Shown piece after piece: positions 5,168 through 47,747 of a stretch of 47,747 nucleotides of DNA. The notes beneath the pieces are model-generated. The model worked only from the letters and a program-made list of their open reading frames with translations. It was not told the origin of the DNA and made no database searches. Origin of the DNA: a virus; IMG/VR virus record IMGVR_UViG_3300048917_000249, positions 1 through 47,747 of that record. One strand, written 5' to 3'. A program made the translations under genes and the position numbers. Every line of letters starts with the position of its first letter. Position 1 is the first letter of the stretch.

Positions 5168-5203
5168 GCTTGCCTCTCCTATGTAACGTCGGCGCGATTG
5201 GTT

Positions 5204-5395
5204 TCATTCGACTTCATCGGGCTTAAGCTTTAGCCGCACCATCAGCCTCAGCAGCTTGGCGACCGGCTCCGGTACGGGGTATTCCCCTAGCGCCCAGCCC
5301 TGCGAGGTCCGCCGTCCAACCCCCAGCCAGTCCCCGGCCCTCTCTTGCGAGAGGCCGAGGCGGTCTATGGCGGTCTTGTATTGAGCGGGGGTCAC
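5204..5395 (-). CDS. small HTH DNA-binding protein (XRE-like, 63 aa)
   Basis: The GTG start overlaps the upstream TGA (GTGA). LGLSQERAGDWLGVGRRTSQGW is helix-turn-helix-like. It is a paralogue of the C-terminal part of 20399..20773. Confidence 0.6.
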   Translation of the reverse strand: MTPAQYKTAIDRLGLSQERAGDWLGVGRRTSQGWALGEYPVPEPVAKLLRLMVRLKLKPDEVE

Positions 5396-5568
5396 GCCGC
5401 ATCCCTTTCGAGGAACTCGGCAAGGCGCTGCACCGCTTCCTTCTTTGTCCTGTACGGGCCAGCGTATGTTCCGCCGCTCTTCACGTAGTAGATGTTCCAA
5501 AGACCGTTGTACCAATCCTTGCGAACTTCGACTTCCAGACCGCAGATCGTCGGGGTTGCTTTGGTCAT
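5392..5568 (-). CDS. hypothetical protein (58 aa)
   Basis: Internal ATG (MTKATPTICG...) preceded by GGAGcaagcaa; the longer track ORF would start at a GTG without an RBS. Confidence 0.55.
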   Translation of the reverse strand: MTKATPTICGLEVEVRKDWYNGLWNIYYVKSGGTYAGPYRTKKEAVQRLAEFLERDAA

Positions 5569-5643
5569 TTGCTTGCTCCGTTGTTGGTATGTCCAACATA
5601 CGCTAATTCTGCGTATACGCAAGTCCCGCGTAATCACTTAATA

Positions 5644-5976
5644 TTACAGCCTAATCCGGTTCCCGGTCCATCTAACCCTTGATTTCTCTGGGCTATCGCC
5701 ACGGTTGACGTTCTCGCTATAGGTCACAATTTCTAAATGGTCGGGGTTTACGCATGCCGGATTCCGGCAGATGTGGTCCAAGCATAGCCCATCAGGTATC
5801 GGCCCGCGCTCTATGCTGTAGACGACCCGGTGGGCGTTCTGGACCTTGTTCTTGCCGTTCACGGGGAAACGGGCGGTCCCGTATCCACTTGCACTATGCG
5901 CCCCAGACCATAGCCAGCAGCCAGTATTCGGCTCTGGGTGGATGCGCGAATAAATTCGGTCAATATATTTCTGCAT
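5644..5976 (-). CDS. HNH homing-type endonuclease
   Basis: ATG 5976 is preceded by AGGAGGaacgacg. Motifs: SGYG...HRVVY...LCLDHICRNPACVNPDHLEIVTYSENVNR (HNH_3-like). The local DNA is AT-richer. Confidence 0.85.
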   Translation of the reverse strand: MQKYIDRIYSRIHPEPNTGCWLWSGAHSASGYGTARFPVNGKNKVQNAHRVVYSIERGPIPDGLCLDHICRNPACVNPDHLEIVTYSENVNRGDSPEKSRVRWTGNRIRL

Positions 5977-6022
5977 CGTCGTTCCTCCTGCAACCAATCC
6001 CGCCGCCCGTAGTGACGCCAAG

Positions 6023-6205
6023 TTAAGGCGCTCGGCCAATGTACCCGCCGCACTCCCCAGGTGCGGCGACCTCAACCCGATAGTTCAGCGGGCCGACGCG
6101 CCAGAGAATCCATTTCGATCCGTAGTTCTGGTGTGCCCACGCGAACCAAGCCATGCCGTCGCTCGGCCAGCGCCAGTAAAAAACTCGTTCCGGTCGTCTC
6201 GCCAT
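6023..6205 (-). CDS. hypothetical protein (60 aa)
   Basis: ATG 6205 is preceded by AGGAGAcaaccg; the longer track ORF begins with TTG. Confidence 0.5.
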   Translation of the reverse strand: MARRPERVFYWRWPSDGMAWFAWAHQNYGSKWILWRVGPLNYRVEVAAPGECGGYIGRAP

Positions 6206-6310
6206 CGGTTGTCTCCTATTGACGCCAAGTATGTGGGGCACCTTTCTGGGTCGTTTAAGATTGGCTCTGCCGAACGGGCCAATCCCCCACTTGCTTGCGA
6301 TCAATGCGGG

Positions 6311-6619
6311 CTAGGCGACCGCCAGCCGCGCCTTGTGCTTCTCAACCACCTTGGCCAGTTTCTCGACAACGCGCCGATCTAGCTTATCGCCCTCGATGCC
6401 GAAGCACTTGGCGAGTAGTTCGAGATAGACCCGAATATCGGCAATCTCGTCCTTCACTTCCTCGGACAGGTCGGCACCGTCGCGCCAACGTTTCTTAATC
6501 ATGTTGGCAAGCTCGCCAGCCTCACCGCATAGCGCGAGCGCAAGGAACCGTTCGTCGCTGTTCGAGTAGGCCGGGAATAGATGGCCGGTCATCTTTTCGT
6601 GCAGGGCATAAAGGTCCAT
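6311..6619 (-). CDS. mazG: MazG-like nucleotide pyrophosphohydrolase
   Basis: LALALCGEAGELANMIKK ... EIADIRVYLELLA is the EAGE/E..D metal-binding helix pattern of the all-alpha NTP-PPase (MazG) family. Confidence 0.75.
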   Translation of the reverse strand: MDLYALHEKMTGHLFPAYSNSDERFLALALCGEAGELANMIKKRWRDGADLSEEVKDEIADIRVYLELLAKCFGIEGDKLDRRVVEKLAKVVEKHKARLAVA

Positions 6620-6684
6620 TTCCGTCTCTCCTGTTGCGACTAGGTGCTTGTGTTTCCAACAAATTTAGACGTGCTTGCTCACCA

Positions 6685-6894
6685 TTAACGGTCAGGGCTT
6701 TCGCCATAGCCGTGTGAACTTTGTTCAGACAGCGCCGCGTAAAACCCCCGCCACCACTCCAAATTCATCGCCTGTTCGACCGCGACTAGAACCCTGTCAT
6801 CGTACCCTTGACCGGCAGGGATACGCGCGAGCAACTGACGGGCGTCAACTCGTGGGATGGCCTCAAGCTGTTCTTTCGTCATTGGCGTCCTCAT
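6685..6894 (-). CDS. hypothetical protein (69 aa)
   Basis: Track ORF in the minus-strand gene train. Confidence 0.55.
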   Translation of the reverse strand: MRTPMTKEQLEAIPRVDARQLLARIPAGQGYDDRVLVAVEQAMNLEWWRGFYAALSEQSSHGYGESPDR

Positions 6895-6904
6895 AGAGTG
6901 GCGG

Positions 6905-7126
6905 TCAGTGGTCGAGACGTGGATTGGCCGCCCTTAGTCTCGCAAGCCCACTCTCAAACTGCTTCATCACCTGTTCGACAGCGGTGCTGGTTCGGCCTTC
7001 TTTGAAGTCTTTGATCCTGTCGTTCAGGATCAATGCTTCGGCGTGGTCGCCAATGGCCGCAGCTTGGTCGCGCTGGCGGCGAAGATCAGCCAGAATAAGG
7101 TCGCGGTCTGATTTCTCGGTATCCAT
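6905..7126 (-). CDS. hypothetical protein (73 aa)
   Basis: Track ORF, predicted helical, in the minus-strand gene train. Confidence 0.6.
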   Translation of the reverse strand: MDTEKSDRDLILADLRRQRDQAAAIGDHAEALILNDRIKDFKEGRTSTAVEQVMKQFESGLARLRAANPRLDH

Positions 7127-7204
7127 TTTAAGCCTCCAACCTGATTTTGTGACACTGAGGGCGCATCAATCGAACCTAAGCGATTGCCGAGCGCACTCCC
7201 CGCA

Positions 7205-7244
7205 ATTAAAAGGGCCGCAACATCCGTGCTTGGAGTTGCGGCCC
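7205..7244 (-). terminator. rho-independent terminator after the PEP-CTERM-like gene
   Basis: On the minus strand: gggccgcaac - 13-nt loop - gttgcggccc, followed by TTTTAATT, 27 nt after the stop at 7271. Confidence 0.6.
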
Positions 7245-7270
7245 CGTTCACCTGATCGACCAAGCAATGA

Positions 7271-7993
7271 TCAGGCTACACTACGCCGACGCCGCTGACG
7301 CAACGCAACCAAACCACACAACGCAGCTACTAAGCCTGGCAATCCGGCGCCGGCGATCGGCAACGGCACTGCTGTCGCAGTCGGGTTGATGGTGTTGCCG
7401 CTGCCCGTCTCAAACAGTGCGCCCGAGTTGGCGGTAGCGACAGTACCGTCAAGGAAGCCGACGATGTACATACCCTGCGCGCCACGGTTCAAACTGAACG
7501 TCGGCGTGAAGGGGCCGTTCGGGCCGCTGAGAGTCTGTACGCCAAGATCAACTTGCAGCACATAGAACCCGGTCGCCGTCGGCAAGAAAACCTGCGACGC
7601 CGGCAGATAGGCGTCGATTGGGTTCGATGGACTGGCGGTCAGTCCGAGATAGGTGTCGAGGAAGCCCGACGTCCACGCGGTGGAAGAAAACAGCGAGAAG
7701 TTCTTGCTGCCGCCCGGAACAGTGCTGCCGGTGATGGTGACAGTGTTGGCCGGATTCACCGAAGCCGTGTTGGGCACCAGAATGTCCAGAACCAGATCGC
7801 CGGTCTGCGGACCGGGCGAAATGGTGAAACCGAAGTTAACCGGCGGATTGCTAGTGATCGGTGTGTTGGTGCCGTTGTCATTGCAAACAGCCGAGCAGAA
7901 TCCGTGCAGCGGATCTTCGATGGTGTCAGCATAGGAAGTCGTGGCGGCGCAGAGCAGCGCGCCCGCCACAAGTAAACGTCGCAATTGACTCAT
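7271..7993 (-). CDS. secreted protein with an N-terminal signal peptide and a PEP-CTERM/VPLPA-CTERM-like C-terminal sorting anchor
   Basis: N-terminus MSQLRRLLVAGALLCAATTSYA/DT. C-terminus AVPLPIAGAGLPGLVAALCGLVALRQRRRR, i.e. a P-x-P motif, a hydrophobic helix and an Arg cluster. Confidence 0.75.
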   Translation of the reverse strand: MSQLRRLLVAGALLCAATTSYADTIEDPLHGFCSAVCNDNGTNTPITSNPPVNFGFTISPGPQTGDLVLDILVPNTASVNPANTVTITGSTVPGGSKNFSLFSSTAWTSGFLDTYLGLTASPSNPIDAYLPASQVFLPTATGFYVLQVDLGVQTLSGPNGPFTPTFSLNRGAQGMYIVGFLDGTVATANSGALFETGSGNTINPTATAVPLPIAGAGLPGLVAALCGLVALRQRRRRSVA

Positions 7994-8154
7994 TGGTGTG
8001 GTTCCTCTGTTGGGTGATCGTCTGATTTGACCGCAACGACTTTAGCACGCGCCTTCGGTTTTGCCTGCGGATCATGTTCCGCAATTTGATTGCGGACACG
8101 ATACACCTTGGCATCGGTCAACATCAGCTTGCGTAATTCGGCTTCTGAGTCCAT
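7990..8154 (-). CDS. small hypothetical protein (54 aa) translationally coupled to the PEP-CTERM-like gene
   Basis: Hand translation from ATG 8154: MDSEAELRKLMLTDAKVYRVRNQIAEHDPQAKPKARAKVVAVKSDDHPTEEPHQ*. Its TGA overlaps ATG 7993 (ATGA). It falls below the track length cut-off. Confidence 0.5.
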   Translation of the reverse strand: MDSEAELRKLMLTDAKVYRVRNQIAEHDPQAKPKARAKVVAVKSDDHPTEEPHQ

Positions 8155-8161
8155 CGAACCG

Positions 8162-8189
8162 ACTATAAATCAAATATTCTGAGAAGCAA
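8162..8189 (-). promoter_or_regulatory. sigma70-like promoter (TTGCTT-16-TATAGT) driving the 8154 gene; the transcript would be near-leaderless
   Basis: Minus strand: -35 at 8184-8189 and -10 at 8162-8167. The ATG lies 7 nt after the -10. Confidence 0.45.
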
Positions 8190-8192
8190 CGC

Positions 8193-8221
8193 TTGCCTGC
8201 TCAAAAATGTTGGGATAATGC
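8193..8221 (+). promoter_or_regulatory. sigma70-like promoter (TTGCCT-17-TAATGC) driving the Cro-like gene; the transcript would be near-leaderless
   Basis: -35 at 8193-8198 and -10 at 8216-8221. ATG 8229 lies 7 nt after the -10. It is back-to-back with the minus-strand promoter, with the -35 boxes 3 bp apart. Confidence 0.45.
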
Positions 8222-8228
8222 TGACACC

Positions 8229-8459
8229 ATGACAACTCTCAAAACCACGGCGGAAGTGATCACCGCGCTGGGCGGCATCGACGCGATGTCGGAGCTGACC
8301 GGCACATCGATCAACGGCGTCTACAACTGGCGGGCAGATAAGCAATTCCCGGCAGATACTTACCGACTGATCAAGGACGAACTCATGGATATCGGCGCCG
8401 ATGCGCCCGACTACCTATGGCCGATGCGTGTCCCACCCAAGAGAAGGAAAGCAAGATGA
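8229..8459 (+). CDS. Cro/YdaS-like HTH regulator (76 aa)
   Basis: MTTLKTTAEVITALGGIDAMSELTGTSINGVYNWRADKQFP is a Cro/YdaS-type HTH pattern. It is the first gene of the rightward block. Confidence 0.6.
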   Translation: MTTLKTTAEVITALGGIDAMSELTGTSINGVYNWRADKQFPADTYRLIKDELMDIGADAPDYLWPMRVPPKRRKAR

Positions 8460-8776: not shown

Positions 8777-8988
8777 TGGCCTGGAAACCAGAGGTGCGCG
8801 TCGTCAATGATGATCGCTGGTATGACAACGCTATTAGATGCGAAACCGAAGCCGAAGCCGAGGCCTATGCCCGCGACCTGTTGCACCGCTGGACCTCGGC
8901 TCGGGAATCCCGCGCTGTCGAATGCGAAGATCCGGTGAACGGCAAGTGGGTCAACGGCAAATGGCAATGGAATGAGGACGTGCGCTGA
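8776..8988 (+). CDS. hypothetical protein (70 aa)
   Basis: ATG 8776 overlaps the upstream TGA, with GGAGGG 8 nt upstream. Confidence 0.6.
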   Translation: MAWKPEVRVVNDDRWYDNAIRCETEAEAEAYARDLLHRWTSARESRAVECEDPVNGKWVNGKWQWNEDVR

Positions 8989-9545
8989 TGCGCGTGCTGG
9001 TGGCCTGCGAGTTCAGCGGCATAGTCCGCAGCGCCTTCCGCCAGCGCGGCCACGATGCATGGTCCTGCGACCTGTTGCCGGCCGAGGATGGCGACTTTCA
9101 TCATCTGCAATGCGATGTCAGGGATATCATGACGCGGCCGGGCTGGGATCTGATGATCGCGCACCCGCCCTGCACCCACCTCGCCGTCAGCGGCGCCCGG
9201 TGGTTCAAGGACAAGCCGAAGGAGCAGGCTGACGCGCTCGCTTTCGTGCGGACCCTGCTCGACGCGCCGGTGCCGCGCATCGCGCTGGAGAACCCGATCA
9301 GCATCATCTCGTCGCGAATCCGCAAGCCAGACCAGATCATCCAGCCGTGGATGTTCGGCCACGGCGAGGTCAAGGCGACCTGTCTCTGGCTCAAGAATCT
9401 TCCGGCGCTGGCGCCGGCCGCCGTCGTCGACGGCCGCAAGCCGCGGGTGCATTTCGTGTCACCCGGCCCGGATCGGTGGAAAGCGCGCAGCCGGACACTA
9501 CCGGGCATCGCTGCCGCCATGGCAGACCAGTGGGGGAGAGCATGA
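8988..9545 (+). CDS. short C5-cytosine DNA methyltransferase-like protein
   Basis: VACEFSG (motif I-like), AHPPCTHLAVSG (PC motif IV-like), ALENP (ENV motif-like). No obvious target-recognition domain at 185 aa. Confidence 0.5.
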   Translation: MRVLVACEFSGIVRSAFRQRGHDAWSCDLLPAEDGDFHHLQCDVRDIMTRPGWDLMIAHPPCTHLAVSGARWFKDKPKEQADALAFVRTLLDAPVPRIALENPISIISSRIRKPDQIIQPWMFGHGEVKATCLWLKNLPALAPAAVVDGRKPRVHFVSPGPDRWKARSRTLPGIAAAMADQWGRA

Positions 9546-10105
9546 GCCAACCCTGGACCCACACCGCCGGCGCCAAAGCCTATCCACGCATCAATGAACA
9601 TTACGTAGAGCCGAGTTGGGTAAGTGAGCGGCTGTTTGAAGAGGAAACATTCATCGGTGGGGTGTTCGATCCCGCTTGTGGGTTCGGCCGCATCGTGGAA
9701 TCGGCAGTCGAACATGGGCTGGATGCGTACGGTTCAGATATCGTCGATCGTGGCAACGGTTACCCGATCGCAAATTTTTTCGATACCACCGATATGCACG
9801 ACAGTGTTGTGTCAAACCCTCCCTTTGACGTCTTCGAGAAGTTCGCTATCCGCGCGCTGACGCTGGCCCGCGACAAGGTGGCACTGATCATGCCGACCGC
9901 ACGGCTCAACGCCGCGCATTGGTTAGAAGAAACACCGCTGCGGCGCGTCTGGTTGTTGACCCCGCGGCCGTCGATGCCGCCGGGCCATGTCATCACGAAC
10001 AAGGGCAAGGTGGGTGGCGGCAAAAGCGACTACTGTTGGATTGTTATGGAGCACGGATATAGTGGCAAACCAGAGATGCAATGGTTGCACCGGGATGAAG
10101 CGTGA
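9542..10105 (+). CDS. N6-adenine (or N4-cytosine) DNA methyltransferase
   Basis: ATGA start overlap. VFDPACGFG (AdoMet motif I) and SNPPF (motif IV). Confidence 0.7.
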   Translation: MSQPWTHTAGAKAYPRINEHYVEPSWVSERLFEEETFIGGVFDPACGFGRIVESAVEHGLDAYGSDIVDRGNGYPIANFFDTTDMHDSVVSNPPFDVFEKFAIRALTLARDKVALIMPTARLNAAHWLEETPLRRVWLLTPRPSMPPGHVITNKGKVGGGKSDYCWIVMEHGYSGKPEMQWLHRDEA

Positions 10106-45370: not shown

Positions 45371-47163
45371 TGGCCTCGGATTTCCTGCGGTTCCAGCAAG
45401 ATCCTTCGCTGGGTAATGCGTTAACCGGCATCGTCTCCGACATCGCCGCCGCGCCCGGCAAGGCGTTGAGCAACACCCATACGGTCGAGGAAATCCTGGC
45501 GCTGCGCGCCAAGCAGAAGCGCGACCAGGCGGAATTCGACGCCAACACCGCCGCCGGCAACGCTACAGCTGCTGCCTTAGCCGGCGTCGGGCCGCCGTTG
45601 AGCACGCGCGATGTTCAGTTTCAACCGCAAGGGCCGGTTAATCCGGCCGATCCGGTCGACCCCAATGCCGTGAAGCTCGGCGACCAGATGGTGCTGCCAT
45701 CATATGCGTCGACCGAGCAGTACATCGACCCGAAGGTGGCCGAACGGTACAAGCGCGAGCTGCCGATGTTTCAGGGTATCGCCAAGGCGGAAGCCTACAA
45801 GAATCCAGGCGGCGTTCCCGGCATCTATTCCAGGGCTTCTATCGGCCTGGGTGGCGCCCCGACCGATCCGGCCGAGATGCAGCGGCTGTCCGGCATCACC
45901 ACCGGCACGGTCACGCCACTCAAGGGCGAGCCCTACGTCGCCGTGTCACCGGACGGCAAGACCCAAATGGTCCTCGGCATGTCCCCGGATGGCGGTGTCC
46001 ACGACATGCAAGGCCGGCTCATGAAAGACATCGCGCCACAAGGCACCGTCCCTGTGCAGGCCAGTAACGTAAATGTCGGGGCTAAGCCGCACTCGATATT
46101 CGAGAACGAAGGCACTCGAATGGCGGCGATCACGGACGCCAACAATGCCGTCCTCGCTGGCAAGCCGCCCAATCCAGCAGACACCCGTAACATATCGATC
46201 GCGATCCGCCAGCAGTACCCGGAGATCAATAAGCTGATGCCCGACGCCGTCGGCAACACCACGGAATTCCGCAACTACGTCGAGAGGGAAGCACCGCCAG
46301 AAATGCAGCCGATCCTGCGGCACATCTACAATACGCTGCCGGAATTCAAACAGCCGCAGGCGGCGGCCGCGGTGCCGGGCGCTGATCCGTCGACTGCGGG
46401 CGCCGTGGTGCAGCAGGCGACCCCGACCCTGCCGGGGATGCGGCCGGCCACCGGCCCGCAGCCGAACATCCTCGTCAATCAGCCGGCCAGTCAGTACCAG
46501 AATCATCTGGGCTTTGCGGTTCAGCGCGCCGACACCGAGCGCCAGCACATCGTGTCGATGATCTTCAACGGCCAGCCAATACCGCCGTCGGGGATGCTGC
46601 CGAAGGATGCCTACCTGCCGGACTGGAAGGCGGCGCTGATCGCCGAGAACCACCCCGATGGGCTCATCAGCAGACAGCTGATGAACGCGGTCGACCCCAA
46701 AGCGCAGGAATATTACGCCGCGGCCAAAGCCTGGATCGAGCCGGTGCTGCGGCTGGCCTCGGGCGCCGCGATCCGAACCGAAGAATACAAAGACTACATG
46801 TACATGTTCATCCCGATGACCGGCGACAGTCAGCAGCTGGTCGCGCAGAAGCTCAACCGCATGCGGGAATGGCAAGAAGCGACCGGCGGCAACGCCACCG
46901 CCAACCAGGCCACCGCCACCTTGATTGCCAAGGCTAATGCGAACAAAGACCCTGAGATGGCCCGCCTGGCCAGCATGATGCAGATCAGGGCCAGGGAAGC
47001 CAAAACCGCCGACATCCCGGCAACCCAATTGCCGGCGGTCGCGCCAAAGGCGCCGGGTGCTCCGGGTGCTACAGGTGCCAACGTACCGAACCCAGCCGCG
47101 GTGCAATCGCTCATGAACACGATCCGGGGCAGCGGTGGCGGTGCAGAAACAGGAGGACTGTAA
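45370..47163 (+). CDS. large internal virion (ejection) protein (597 aa)
   Basis: ATG overlaps the upstream TGA. Position fits an internal protein, but no motif was recognised. Confidence 0.75.
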   Translation: MASDFLRFQQDPSLGNALTGIVSDIAAAPGKALSNTHTVEEILALRAKQKRDQAEFDANTAAGNATAAALAGVGPPLSTRDVQFQPQGPVNPADPVDPNAVKLGDQMVLPSYASTEQYIDPKVAERYKRELPMFQGIAKAEAYKNPGGVPGIYSRASIGLGGAPTDPAEMQRLSGITTGTVTPLKGEPYVAVSPDGKTQMVLGMSPDGGVHDMQGRLMKDIAPQGTVPVQASNVNVGAKPHSIFENEGTRMAAITDANNAVLAGKPPNPADTRNISIAIRQQYPEINKLMPDAVGNTTEFRNYVEREAPPEMQPILRHIYNTLPEFKQPQAAAAVPGADPSTAGAVVQQATPTLPGMRPATGPQPNILVNQPASQYQNHLGFAVQRADTERQHIVSMIFNGQPIPPSGMLPKDAYLPDWKAALIAENHPDGLISRQLMNAVDPKAQEYYAAAKAWIEPVLRLASGAAIRTEEYKDYMYMFIPMTGDSQQLVAQKLNRMREWQEATGGNATANQATATLIAKANANKDPEMARLASMMQIRAREAKTADIPATQLPAVAPKAPGAPGATGANVPNPAAVQSLMNTIRGSGGGAETGGL

Positions 47164-47747
47164 ATGGCCGAGCAGCCTCCGTTGTCGCGCGAAGAACTGA
47201 CCAACTACCTGGGGAAGGCCACCCCGGGTTCGCAGGAATATGTCACCGCCAAACAGCTGCTCGACGCCATGCCGCCGGCGCCCGGTACGCCTGGCGCCCC
47301 GTCGCCGCCAACCTACAGCAGCGAGACTGGCATCAAGCCGTTTGGGCCGCCGGACATCAACTACCAGGCGCCGGTCGCAGACGTCCGCAGTTCGCTGGCA
47401 CCGCTGCCGGAAGCCGATCGCACCGCCGGTCTGAACAAGTGGGCCGACATCCAGGAGCAGCAGCAGAACGCCCAAGGTGGGCCACTGCGTAAGCTCGGCG
47501 ATATCACCCGCAGTATTGTTCAGGGCACTCCGGCCGGCAACTGGCCCGATCGCGCCAACGCCTACGTCAGCTCCAAGCTGCCGGAATCCTATGGCGGCCG
47601 ACCCTACGATGAGGCGCTGGCCCTGCAGCAGGCGCGCAACCGCCGCAACCTGGCAGAGCACCCGGCCGAGACGCCGATACTCAACACCGTCGGTGCTGTC
47701 GCCACCGCGCCGCTCACCGCGCTGCGCGGCCTCGGCATTGGCTCGCT
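47164..47747 (+). CDS. N-terminal part of the wrap-around internal virion protein (continues at base 128 and ends 1679; 711 codons in total)
   Basis: TAAATG junction at 47161-47166. Hand translation MAEQPPLSREELTNYLGK... runs without a stop to the window end. Confidence 0.8.
   Translation, partial: MAEQPPLSREELTNYLGKATPGSQEYVTAKQLLDAMPPAPGTPGAPSPPTYSSETGIKPFGPPDINYQAPVADVRSSLAPLPEADRTAGLNKWADIQEQQQNAQGGPLRKLGDITRSIVQGTPAGNWPDRANAYVSSKLPESYGGRPYDEALALQQARNRRNLAEHPAETPILNTVGAVATAPLTALRGLGIGS

Follow-up and report, generated by a model that had tools for sequence, protein, structure and literature searches.

Positions 1 to 47,747 of the IMG/VR virus record IMGVR_UViG_3300048917_000249 (47,747 nucleotides (nt), hereafter the window) encode a protein of 240 amino acids (aa), whose gene we refer to as the cargo gene, and which begins with a signal peptide and ends in a tripartite C-terminus. 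Judged by its sequence, this C-terminus appears to represent a class of sorting signal that curated models do not cover, composed of the motif V-P-x-P-x-x-G-A-G-L-P-G-L, a transmembrane segment and RRRR, which we call the "GAGLPGL tag". The tag is related by descent to PEP-CTERM, the signal of the exosortase (XrtA/EpsH) sorting system (TIGR02595, PF07589; Haft 2006, PMC1569441), and is a modular address label native to one alphaproteobacterial clade, comprising Bradyrhizobium, Xanthobacteraceae and relatives. Two sister phages encode a different mature domain with the same tag between conserved flanks at the same locus, which represents a cassette swap. We consider it somewhat probable that the cargo is a Sec-exported protein whose GAGLPGL tag is processed by a host enzyme, that it occupies a swappable slot, and that the phage benefits through modification of the host envelope.

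The cargo protein and its C-terminal tag

The N-terminus of the cargo protein, MSQLRRLLVAGALLCAATTSYA followed by DT, combines a basic n-region, a hydrophobic core and an S-Y-A cleavage-type site, as is typical of a Sec signal peptide, and the signal peptides of 66 homologs align with it. A lipoprotein reading of the same N-terminus was rejected, since A-L-L-C lacks the small residue needed at lipobox position -1. At the other end of the protein, the motif begins 32 aa before the last residue and is followed by the hydrophobic middle segment GLPGLVAALCGLVAL. The AlphaFold2 model (mean predicted local distance difference test score 81.4) has a beta-rich core and a C-terminal helix, which is placed at model residues 217-238, so that GAGLPGL and VAALCGLVAL are predicted to form a membrane helix together. 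The original prediction had described a secreted protein with a cleavable signal peptide and a tripartite C-terminus; these features could all be recovered, with motif, hydrophobic stretch and Arg cluster each readable in the 240-aa product of what is a genuine phage.

The gene itself is intact, with a ribosome-binding site (GAGG) upstream, and its composition (guanine-cytosine (GC) content 0.602, GC content at third codon positions (GC3) 0.70) matches that of the window (GC 0.605) and of the genes in it with an assigned function (GC3 0.65-0.84). Seventeen metagenomic contigs of this phage, obtained from several samples, encode the identical protein with the same surroundings. A homology search returned 857 homologs of the 240-aa protein, and the mature-domain family is mainly bacterial. 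A tblastn search of deposited phages and plasmids gave no match with either the cargo protein or consensus tails, the tail queries probably having been masked for low complexity.

Twenty tails that were gathered through homology of the mature domain, and not through the motif, have the consensus AVPGPIVGAGLPGLIAACGGLLALARRRRQ, in which seven positions (P, P, G, A, G, P and G) never vary and V and G hardly do. The family is not uniform in its C-termini: the roughly 150 members retrieved include 49 with GAGLPGL, 48 with PEPxxW, 43 with PEP and four with PLP tails. The V-P-x-P positions align over all of these classes, with both prolines invariant in the 67 members aligned, and in the same alignment the GAGLPGL tails are set apart from the PEP and VPLPA tails by a four-residue insertion and an invariant block of their own. 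The VPLP with which the window's motif starts is a minority spelling, the consensus of the class being VPGP. The Arg cluster recurs throughout the class, as RRRR or WWRRR(Q/K) in the listed tails and as RQRRRR in the window.

Some variation is apparent within the tag. As judged by eye, chromosomal tags mostly have Trp-Trp before the Arg cluster and no Cys, and many tails from viral contigs, together with those of homologs of the window protein, end in ...GLPGLIAACGGLLALARRRRQ, with a Cys in the helix and no Trp. A tally of viral tails gave mixed endings, and sub-classes of the tag are possible.

Relation to curated sorting signals

Scans of the whole cargo protein and of its 37-aa tail against NCBIfam (release 20.0) and Pfam gave no CTERM model match at E<=10, the sole matches being noise (PVV_CTERM at E=0.33, GVDTG at E=3.9, and DUF4190). 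The control tails P0007, P0046 and P0022, taken from homologs, were detected in TIGR02595/PF07589 with 19.9-26.9 bits (cutoff 16), and membership of the window tail in any curated CTERM class was therefore rejected. Among the relatives of the cargo protein, those with VPEP tails match TIGR02595 and NF035944 (PEPxxWA-CTERM), two with VPLPSA tails (P0051 and P0097) score 22.0 and 18.6 bits on TIGR03370, for which the cutoff is 25.35, and five with window-like tails match no CTERM model. The models are thus able to report tails of this family, those of the VPLPSA kind included. The window tail does not contain the P-E-P signature; it reads V-P-L-P, without Glu, and both prolines align with those of PEP. 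The assignment to the PEP-CTERM (TIGR02595/PF07589) or VPLPA-CTERM (TIGR03370) type in the original prediction could thus not be upheld, as neither model matches at E<=10.

That prediction was also to be given up if no CTERM hidden Markov model (HMM) matched and the homologs proved to be ordinary tail-anchored proteins. The HMM match is indeed missing, but the homologs are of a different kind: in many of them the aligned position is occupied by a bona fide PEP-CTERM, PEPxxWA-CTERM or VPLPA-like tail. Furthermore, one phage-borne tagged family corresponds over its full length to NF033947, the "cistern family PEP-CTERM protein" (114 bits, cutoff 60), and another resembles FxDxF PEP-CTERM over its whole length, at a score below the model cutoff. 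A member of NF033947 and a weakly FxDxF-PEP-CTERM-like protein are encoded as a tandem pair, both with GAGLPGL, on the IMG/VR contig L223 (from 9113 and from 9753).

The tag in bacterial genomes

By the eight attributes through which Haft (2023, doi 10.1101/2023.06.07.544157) characterizes tripartite C-terminal sorting signals, the GAGLPGL tag qualifies in every one. They include a hydrophobic, transmembrane-like middle segment, two to five basic residues (mostly Arg) clustered at the end, an N-terminal signal peptide in the majority of carriers, and many pairs of carriers with nothing in common except the tag. Its distribution was surveyed by scanning 185,579 species genomes and IMG/VR with a back-translated DNA pattern for V-P-x-P-x-x-G-A-G-L-P-G-L. 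In the genomes, the motif lies 45 aa or less from the end of the open reading frame (ORF) in 96 of the 125 matches listed; the true tags among these are mostly found about 28-37 aa from the end, and the other listed matches are internal, chance-like and from unrelated taxa. The tag carriers listed are diverse in length and N-terminus, and when judged by eye the full-length ones mostly open with a basic n-region, a hydrophobic core and an A-x-A-type site. Several genomes contain more than one match: at least six in the metagenome-assembled genome (MAG) GS_HAYS_MAG_00001, at least four each in AP_8 and MFD03346.bin.1.73, and at least two each in Bradyrhizobium centrosematis LMG 29515 and Bradyrhizobium sp. 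McL0615. The named sources among the matches listed include Bradyrhizobium, Xanthobacteraceae, Pseudolabrys, Methylocella and Roseiarcus, along with many uncultured Alphaproteobacteria. A phmmer search with a 34-aa tail, which has little power, returned 45 matches, almost all of them C-terminal and most at the extreme C-terminus.

In B. centrosematis LMG 29515 and relatives (L028, L090 and L117), a 282-aa chromosomal tagged gene lies about 1 kb from a gene for a 486-aa Bac_transf protein (PF02397). Such a sugar transferase neighborhood recalls the exopolysaccharide loci of classic PEP-CTERM, in what is a single Bradyrhizobium case. Near-identical fragments of a tagged ORF also occur in MAGs of different phyla, including Verrucomicrobiae and Acidobacteriaceae (L043, L052 and L100), a pattern which suggests mis-binned mobile or phage DNA and not true hosts.

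Cassette exchange in sister phages

The two sister phages, L252 and L253, are close relatives of the window phage, with 83% identity in PolA, 95% in the helicase and 95% in the 76-aa gene adjacent to the cargo locus. At the same locus, divergent from the 76-aa gene, both encode a protein of the unrelated "...FEHFRIDVA" family, which is the second-largest viral cluster among the matches listed, and the tail of this protein is identical to that of the window, AVPLPIAGAGLPGLVAALCGLVALRQRRRRSVA. Comparison of the DNA with L252 resolves three conserved blocks: the 76-aa gene with the intergenic region up to the -35 element (8776-8170, 89% identical), the signal-peptide region (7983-7919, 84%), and the tag, stop codon and terminator (7372-7238, 89% identical to 8401-8533 of L252). 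The intervening 550 nt or so, which code for the mature domain, have no similarity between the window and L252. With the address parts conserved and the mature domain dissimilar, the locus is a slot in which the cargo is exchanged, and this layout of a kept signal peptide and tag around a swapped domain points to strong diversifying selection on the displayed proteins.

Beside the slot, at about 5200-7130 of the window, there is an accessory island with two small ORFs, a 131-aa ORF and genes for an HNH endonuclease and a MazG-like protein. Both sister phages lack this block and have 94-aa and 107-aa ORFs in its place.

Tagged genes in other phages

The scan of IMG/VR extends these observations to a large number of viral contigs. 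Of the 130 matches listed, 129 are C-terminal; they come from at least 118 contigs and represent at least 108 distinct sequences, and most full-length carriers among them are 180-310 aa long with a signal-peptide-like start, as judged by eye. When 113 viral mature domains of at least 100 aa were clustered by BLAST (E<=1e-5), at least 20 unrelated clusters resulted, with the family of the window a minor one; eight cluster representatives were scanned, and none of the eight has a Pfam domain. The genes that recur next to viral tag genes encode portal, major head protein, endolysin, two integrase families and RecT, as well as helicase, DNA methyltransferase and tail fiber protein, with one of the ten recurrent neighbor families scanned lacking a PHROG match. 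The viral contigs that bear the tag are genuine phage or prophage DNA. Two or three tagged genes, in tandem pairs and in one case a triplet, are present in 17 of 94 viral loci.

The closest homologs of the window protein (72-75% identity) are found in at least four other phage-like contexts. One of these (L001) includes a SNF2 helicase, an amidase and a TIG-domain protein, and another (L005) YqaJ/RecT, GcrA and lysozyme, with an integrase immediately upstream of the homolog gene; in both, the homolog has a GAG[LIM]PG tail, and the gene after it, which is unrelated, ends in this tag as well. The viral contigs L130 (7914-9482) and L131 (7794-9431) have the same layout, with the mature domain of the window (72-75% identity) now joined to a PEPxxWA tail and a second, unrelated PEPxxWA-tailed gene immediately next to it. 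In none of the loci compared, the 94 viral ones included, are tag classes mixed, as would be expected if the tail must match a recognition system encoded by the host. The tag follows the presumed host.

The phage genome, its host and the search for a sorting enzyme

The window encodes a PolA family-A DNA polymerase, a SNF2-type helicase, a primase-like protein, an exonuclease, two DNA methyltransferases, an HNH endonuclease and a MazG-like protein, together with a large terminase, portal, major head protein, tail fibers and a protein of 997 aa that includes a lysozyme domain. A gene of about 711 aa spans both ends (1-1679 and 47163-47747; compare L006, 7740-9875), which indicates that the window is a circularly permuted, complete phage genome of 47.7 kb.

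The statement in the original prediction that no exosortase is encoded here remains valid. No ORF of at least 80 aa in the window has four or more transmembrane-like segments, so that the phage encodes no enzyme of the exosortase, rhomboid or CPBP type. Outside the phage, no exosortase lies closer than about 4 kb to any sampled chromosomal tag gene, and clustering of the ORFs around 49 chromosomal and 94 viral tag loci gave no recurrent multi-pass membrane protein. The multi-pass neighbors that were scanned comprise a sugar transferase, an M50 peptidase with CBS domains, an AbrB-family protein, a histidine kinase, an acyltransferase and two proteins without a Pfam match, none of which recurs.

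With respect to the host, no tRNA genes were found in the window, and comparison of its DNA with deposited phages gave matches only in the methyltransferase and helicase genes, with no host clue. The two DNA methyltransferase genes (phrog_757 and phrog_799) are adjacent, at 8988-10105; such a pair, together with the GcrA-like gene near the homolog in L005, is consistent with an alphaproteobacterial host. The best available hint is the tag itself, which, as anticipated in the original prediction, points to a host clade, namely Bradyrhizobium, Xanthobacteraceae and related Alphaproteobacteria.

Flanking signals and the 54-aa reading frame

The features of the locus are collected in Table 1. The original prediction described the locus as a self-contained moron, a two-gene unit with its own promoter and its own GC-stem and T-run terminator. 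The terminator is well supported: a stretch of 68 nt folds at -28.7 kcal/mol (z = -2.3), and at the homologous position in L252 a comparable GC-rich hairpin with the T-run TTTAATTT can be read from the sequence. A consensus terminator scan missed the hairpin because its loop exceeds 8 nt.

The promoter is less certain. Both hexamers and the 16-nt spacer are present as described, but the candidate agrees with the consensus at 8 of 12 positions and was not called by the promoter scan, which itself found two sites in the region, against 1.1 expected by chance. The candidate is located in the divergent intergenic region of 74 nt, where L252 has TTGCAA-17-TACGCT, and its -35 part falls within the block conserved with L252 (8776-8170); a promoter somewhere in this region is plausible from these alignments. 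If TATAGT (8167-8162) were a real -10 element, the transcript would be leaderless, beginning at about the start codon (ATG, 8154) of the 54-aa ORF.

The ATGA overlap that led to the two-gene unit does exist. The 54-aa ORF, however, has a GC3 of 0.49, compared with 0.65-0.84 in the functionally assigned genes of the window, has no NCBIfam or Pfam family match, is absent from L252 and L253, and has no similarity to the 47-aa ORF upstream of the homolog in L001. With its low GC3, its absence from the sister phages and its lack of relation to the L001 ORF, the claim of a two-gene unit is weak, and we reject the 54-aa ORF as a conserved partner gene. As to the status of a moron, the terminator and the variability of the slot, which in the sister phages is filled with different cargo and not empty, agree with the term; the base composition of the cargo, which matches the window and is not foreign, and the lack of lysogeny genes among the larger ORFs do not, and the promoter is a candidate. 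The 76-aa gene on the far side of the intergenic region has no PHROG or Pfam match.

Table 1. Coordinates of the cargo locus and of the flanking features in the window.
Feature	Position	Strand	Description
Terminator-like hairpin and T-run	7204-7245	minus	GGGGCCGCAAC...GUUGCGGCCC then UUUUAAUU
Cargo gene, 240 aa	7271-7993	minus	Secreted beta-sandwich protein (predicted) with C-terminal tag; stop codon 7271-7273
Basic cluster R232-Q-R-R-R-R237, then S-V-A and stop	7283-7300	minus	Read from sequence
Hydrophobic segment of the tag, VAALCGLVAL, V222-L231	7301-7330	minus	Sequence and AlphaFold2 helix
Signature motif of the tag, V209-P-L-P-I-A-G-A-G-L-P-G-L221	7331-7369	minus	Contains the residues invariant in 20 homolog tails
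Mature domain, aa 23-206	7376-7927	minus	Exchangeable part of the cassette; signature DPLHG[FY]C...DNGTN...ATANSGA[IL]F
Signal peptide, aa 1-22, MSQLRRLLVAGALLCAATTSYA	7928-7993	minus	Predicted cleavage before D23; sequence and alignment
54-aa ORF, doubtful, lineage-specific	7990-8154	minus	ATGA overlap with cargo gene; GC3 0.49
Candidate sigma-70-type promoter, weak	8162-8189	minus	TTGCTT (8189-8184), 16 nt, TATAGT (8167-8162)
76-aa gene, conserved anchor of the locus	8229-8459	plus	Divergently transcribed; 95% identical in L252/L253

Discussion

We suggest the following scenario for the cargo protein. The beta-sandwich protein would be exported through Sec and its signal peptide cleaved, after which the C-terminal helix would keep it anchored in the inner membrane, the Arg cluster facing the cytoplasm. 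A membrane enzyme of the host, either an exosortase-like transpeptidase or another intramembrane protease, would then recognize the motif, remove the anchor and deliver the mature domain to exopolysaccharide or the cell surface. Since the tag aligns with PEP-CTERM and takes its place within the same protein families, an exosortase-like enzyme comes first among the candidates. The slot in the phage genome would be ordered as promoter region, signal peptide, exchangeable mature domain, tag and terminator, and recombination via the conserved signal-peptide and tag sequences could swap the mature domain between phages. The benefit to the phage may consist in a change of the host envelope during infection or lysogeny, such as receptor masking, superinfection exclusion or altered aggregation, and the rapid turnover of the cargo would fit an arms-race role of this type, e.g., receptor masking or superinfection exclusion. 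The architecture, the tag class with its modularity, its host range, its prevalence in phages and the cassette swap are established from the sequences; host-enzyme processing, the final location of the protein and its biological role are what we infer here, and surface remodeling or superinfection exclusion would be the likely forms of that role.

Several points speak against this scenario. The counts from the scans are lower bounds, and since the scans searched with the motif itself, the invariance of the motif inside the scan sets is circular. Conservation of the motif could also serve helix capping, oligomerization or a function as a recombination arm. Neither an exosortase nor a rhomboid or CPBP protease was found near the sampled chromosomal and viral tag genes. 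The mature domain has no structural relative in a Foldseek search of the AlphaFold2 model (best E 0.03, TM about 0.3); the fold search in PDB and BFVD gave just weak p53-like or Ig-like beta-sandwich noise, from which no function was read, and with neither a structural nor a functional relative of the domain the biological role is a guess. Finally, there is no integrase or repressor among the larger ORFs of the window (not every small ORF was scanned), so that the phage looks virulent and lysogenic conversion is unlikely in its case.

The main rival to this reading is that the tail is a plain type-I anchor which remains unprocessed and holds a beta-sandwich in the periplasm, where it would confer immunity or block injection, the motif being structural or a recombination arm. 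Inner-membrane superinfection-exclusion proteins are common in phages, no CTERM model matches the tail, no sorting enzyme is found in the phage or near the tag genes sampled, and the tag DNA acts as a recombination boundary between the sister phages, all of which agree with such an anchor. It would not, however, need seven invariant motif residues across about 20 unrelated families and the chromosomal genes of many genomes, and it has to be set against the replacement of bona fide PEP-CTERM, PEPxxWA and VPLPA-like signals by this tail in homologs, the members of curated PEP-CTERM families among the carriers, and the full set of the attributes listed by Haft. We disfavor a plain anchor mainly on account of the conservation of the motif over unrelated families, and regard it as unlikely. 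The idea that the tail belongs to a genuine VPLPA- or PEP-CTERM exosortase substrate, as in the original prediction, and has diverged past the reach of the HMMs takes its strength from the VPLP start, from the alignment of V-P-x-P with VPEP and VPLP tails, with the prolines invariant, and from the homologs that bear such tails. Yet VPLP is a minority within a VPGP class, neither PEP nor VPLPA tails have the four-residue insertion or the invariant GAGLPGL block, TIGR03370 and TIGR02595 give no match at E<=10 while detecting the controls, and the taxonomic range (Bradyrhizobium, Xanthobacteraceae) is a set of its own, which together make this divergence quite improbable.

It could also be argued that the gene is passively captured host DNA, or an artefact of binning or assembly, and does nothing for the phage. 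Most of the mature-domain family is bacterial, some of the 857 matches lying on contigs of hundreds of kilobases, and the composition of the gene equals that of the phage and so gives no sign of a special origin. Against this stand the identical gene on 17 contigs of the phage from several samples, the complete and circularly permuted genome, the slot that is kept and refilled in the sister phages, the tagged cargo beside phage hallmark genes in at least 118 viral contigs, and the intact ORF with its GAGG ribosome-binding site and terminator, so that capture without function seems highly improbable.

The scenario of a host-processed tag on a swappable cargo can be extended to a more general one, in which phages of Bradyrhizobium, Xanthobacteraceae and related soil Alphaproteobacteria shuffle by recombination a repertoire of small, fast-evolving surface proteins, all addressed by a new tag that is processed by a host enzyme and is related to PEP-CTERM but distinct from it. 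Exchange of the mature domain between the signal-peptide and tag arms would make this an arms-race module, used in superinfection exclusion, receptor masking or surface remodeling. We offer this as a possibility, somewhat short of probable. If true, the GAGLPGL tag would be a new class of prokaryotic C-terminal sorting signal, in soil Alphaproteobacteria, and since the tag is invisible to Pfam and NCBIfam, tagged proteins are expected to carry the annotation "hypothetical". The tag would give phylogenetic profiling a concrete starting point in the search for the cognate sorting enzyme, and could mark the hosts of uncultured soil phages. Phages would routinely bear cargo with the sorting tag of their own host, PEPxxWA in some and GAGLPGL in others.

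Comparison with known systems

The GAGLPGL tag resembles PEP-CTERM in several ways. Both place a proline signature, a transmembrane helix and an Arg cluster at the very end of proteins that have a signal peptide, and both have many carriers per genome; V-P-x-P aligns, and homologs of tagged families are curated PEP-CTERM proteins. The tag differs in having no Glu, a longer signature, no HMM match and another taxonomic range. In other lineages (among them L130/L131 and P0051/P0097, respectively), PEPxxWA-CTERM (NF035944) and VPLPA-CTERM (TIGR03370) signals occupy the corresponding position behind this mature domain, the P0051/P0097 tails scoring just below the TIGR03370 cutoff, but the window tail matches neither, its VPLP being a local variant of VPGP. 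WGxxGxxG-CTERM (NF038039) is an orphan tripartite signal without an assigned sorting enzyme (Haft 2023, doi 10.1101/2023.06.07.544157), and is likewise a C-terminal domain known by architecture and distribution; it has another motif and a curated model, of which there is none for the GAGLPGL tag in NCBIfam 20.0 or Pfam.

Among phage-borne proteins, two examples are comparable. SasX is a prophage-borne LPXTG surface protein of Staphylococcus (PMC7047976). It is, like the cargo protein, a surface protein carried by a phage and equipped with a C-terminal sorting signal, and it differs in its Gram-positive setting, in the LPXTG/sortase chemistry, and in being a single gene in contrast to a repertoire of swappable cassettes. 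The sorting signal of SasX depends on the sortase A encoded by the host. The Llp lipoprotein of phage T5 and those of the Cor type block the receptor and thereby cause superinfection exclusion, using lipoprotein maturation and Lol of the host (PMC9586334). As a small envelope protein of a virulent phage that relies on a sorting pathway of its host, Llp comes close to the functional model proposed here, while its address is an N-terminal lipobox and its function has been demonstrated; the cargo protein has a C-terminal tag, and its function is inferred.

In the literature searched, the motif GAGLPGL appears in no paper, the co-mentions of PEP-CTERM and phage that were checked are merely incidental, and no prior description of such phage cargo was found, in line with the original prediction, in which PEP-CTERM-type cargo is not known as a described phage function. 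Both tripartite C-terminal sorting signals and phage cargo that uses a sorting pathway of the host are of a known kind. What appears to be new is the class of tag, how widely phages carry it, and the cassette architecture.

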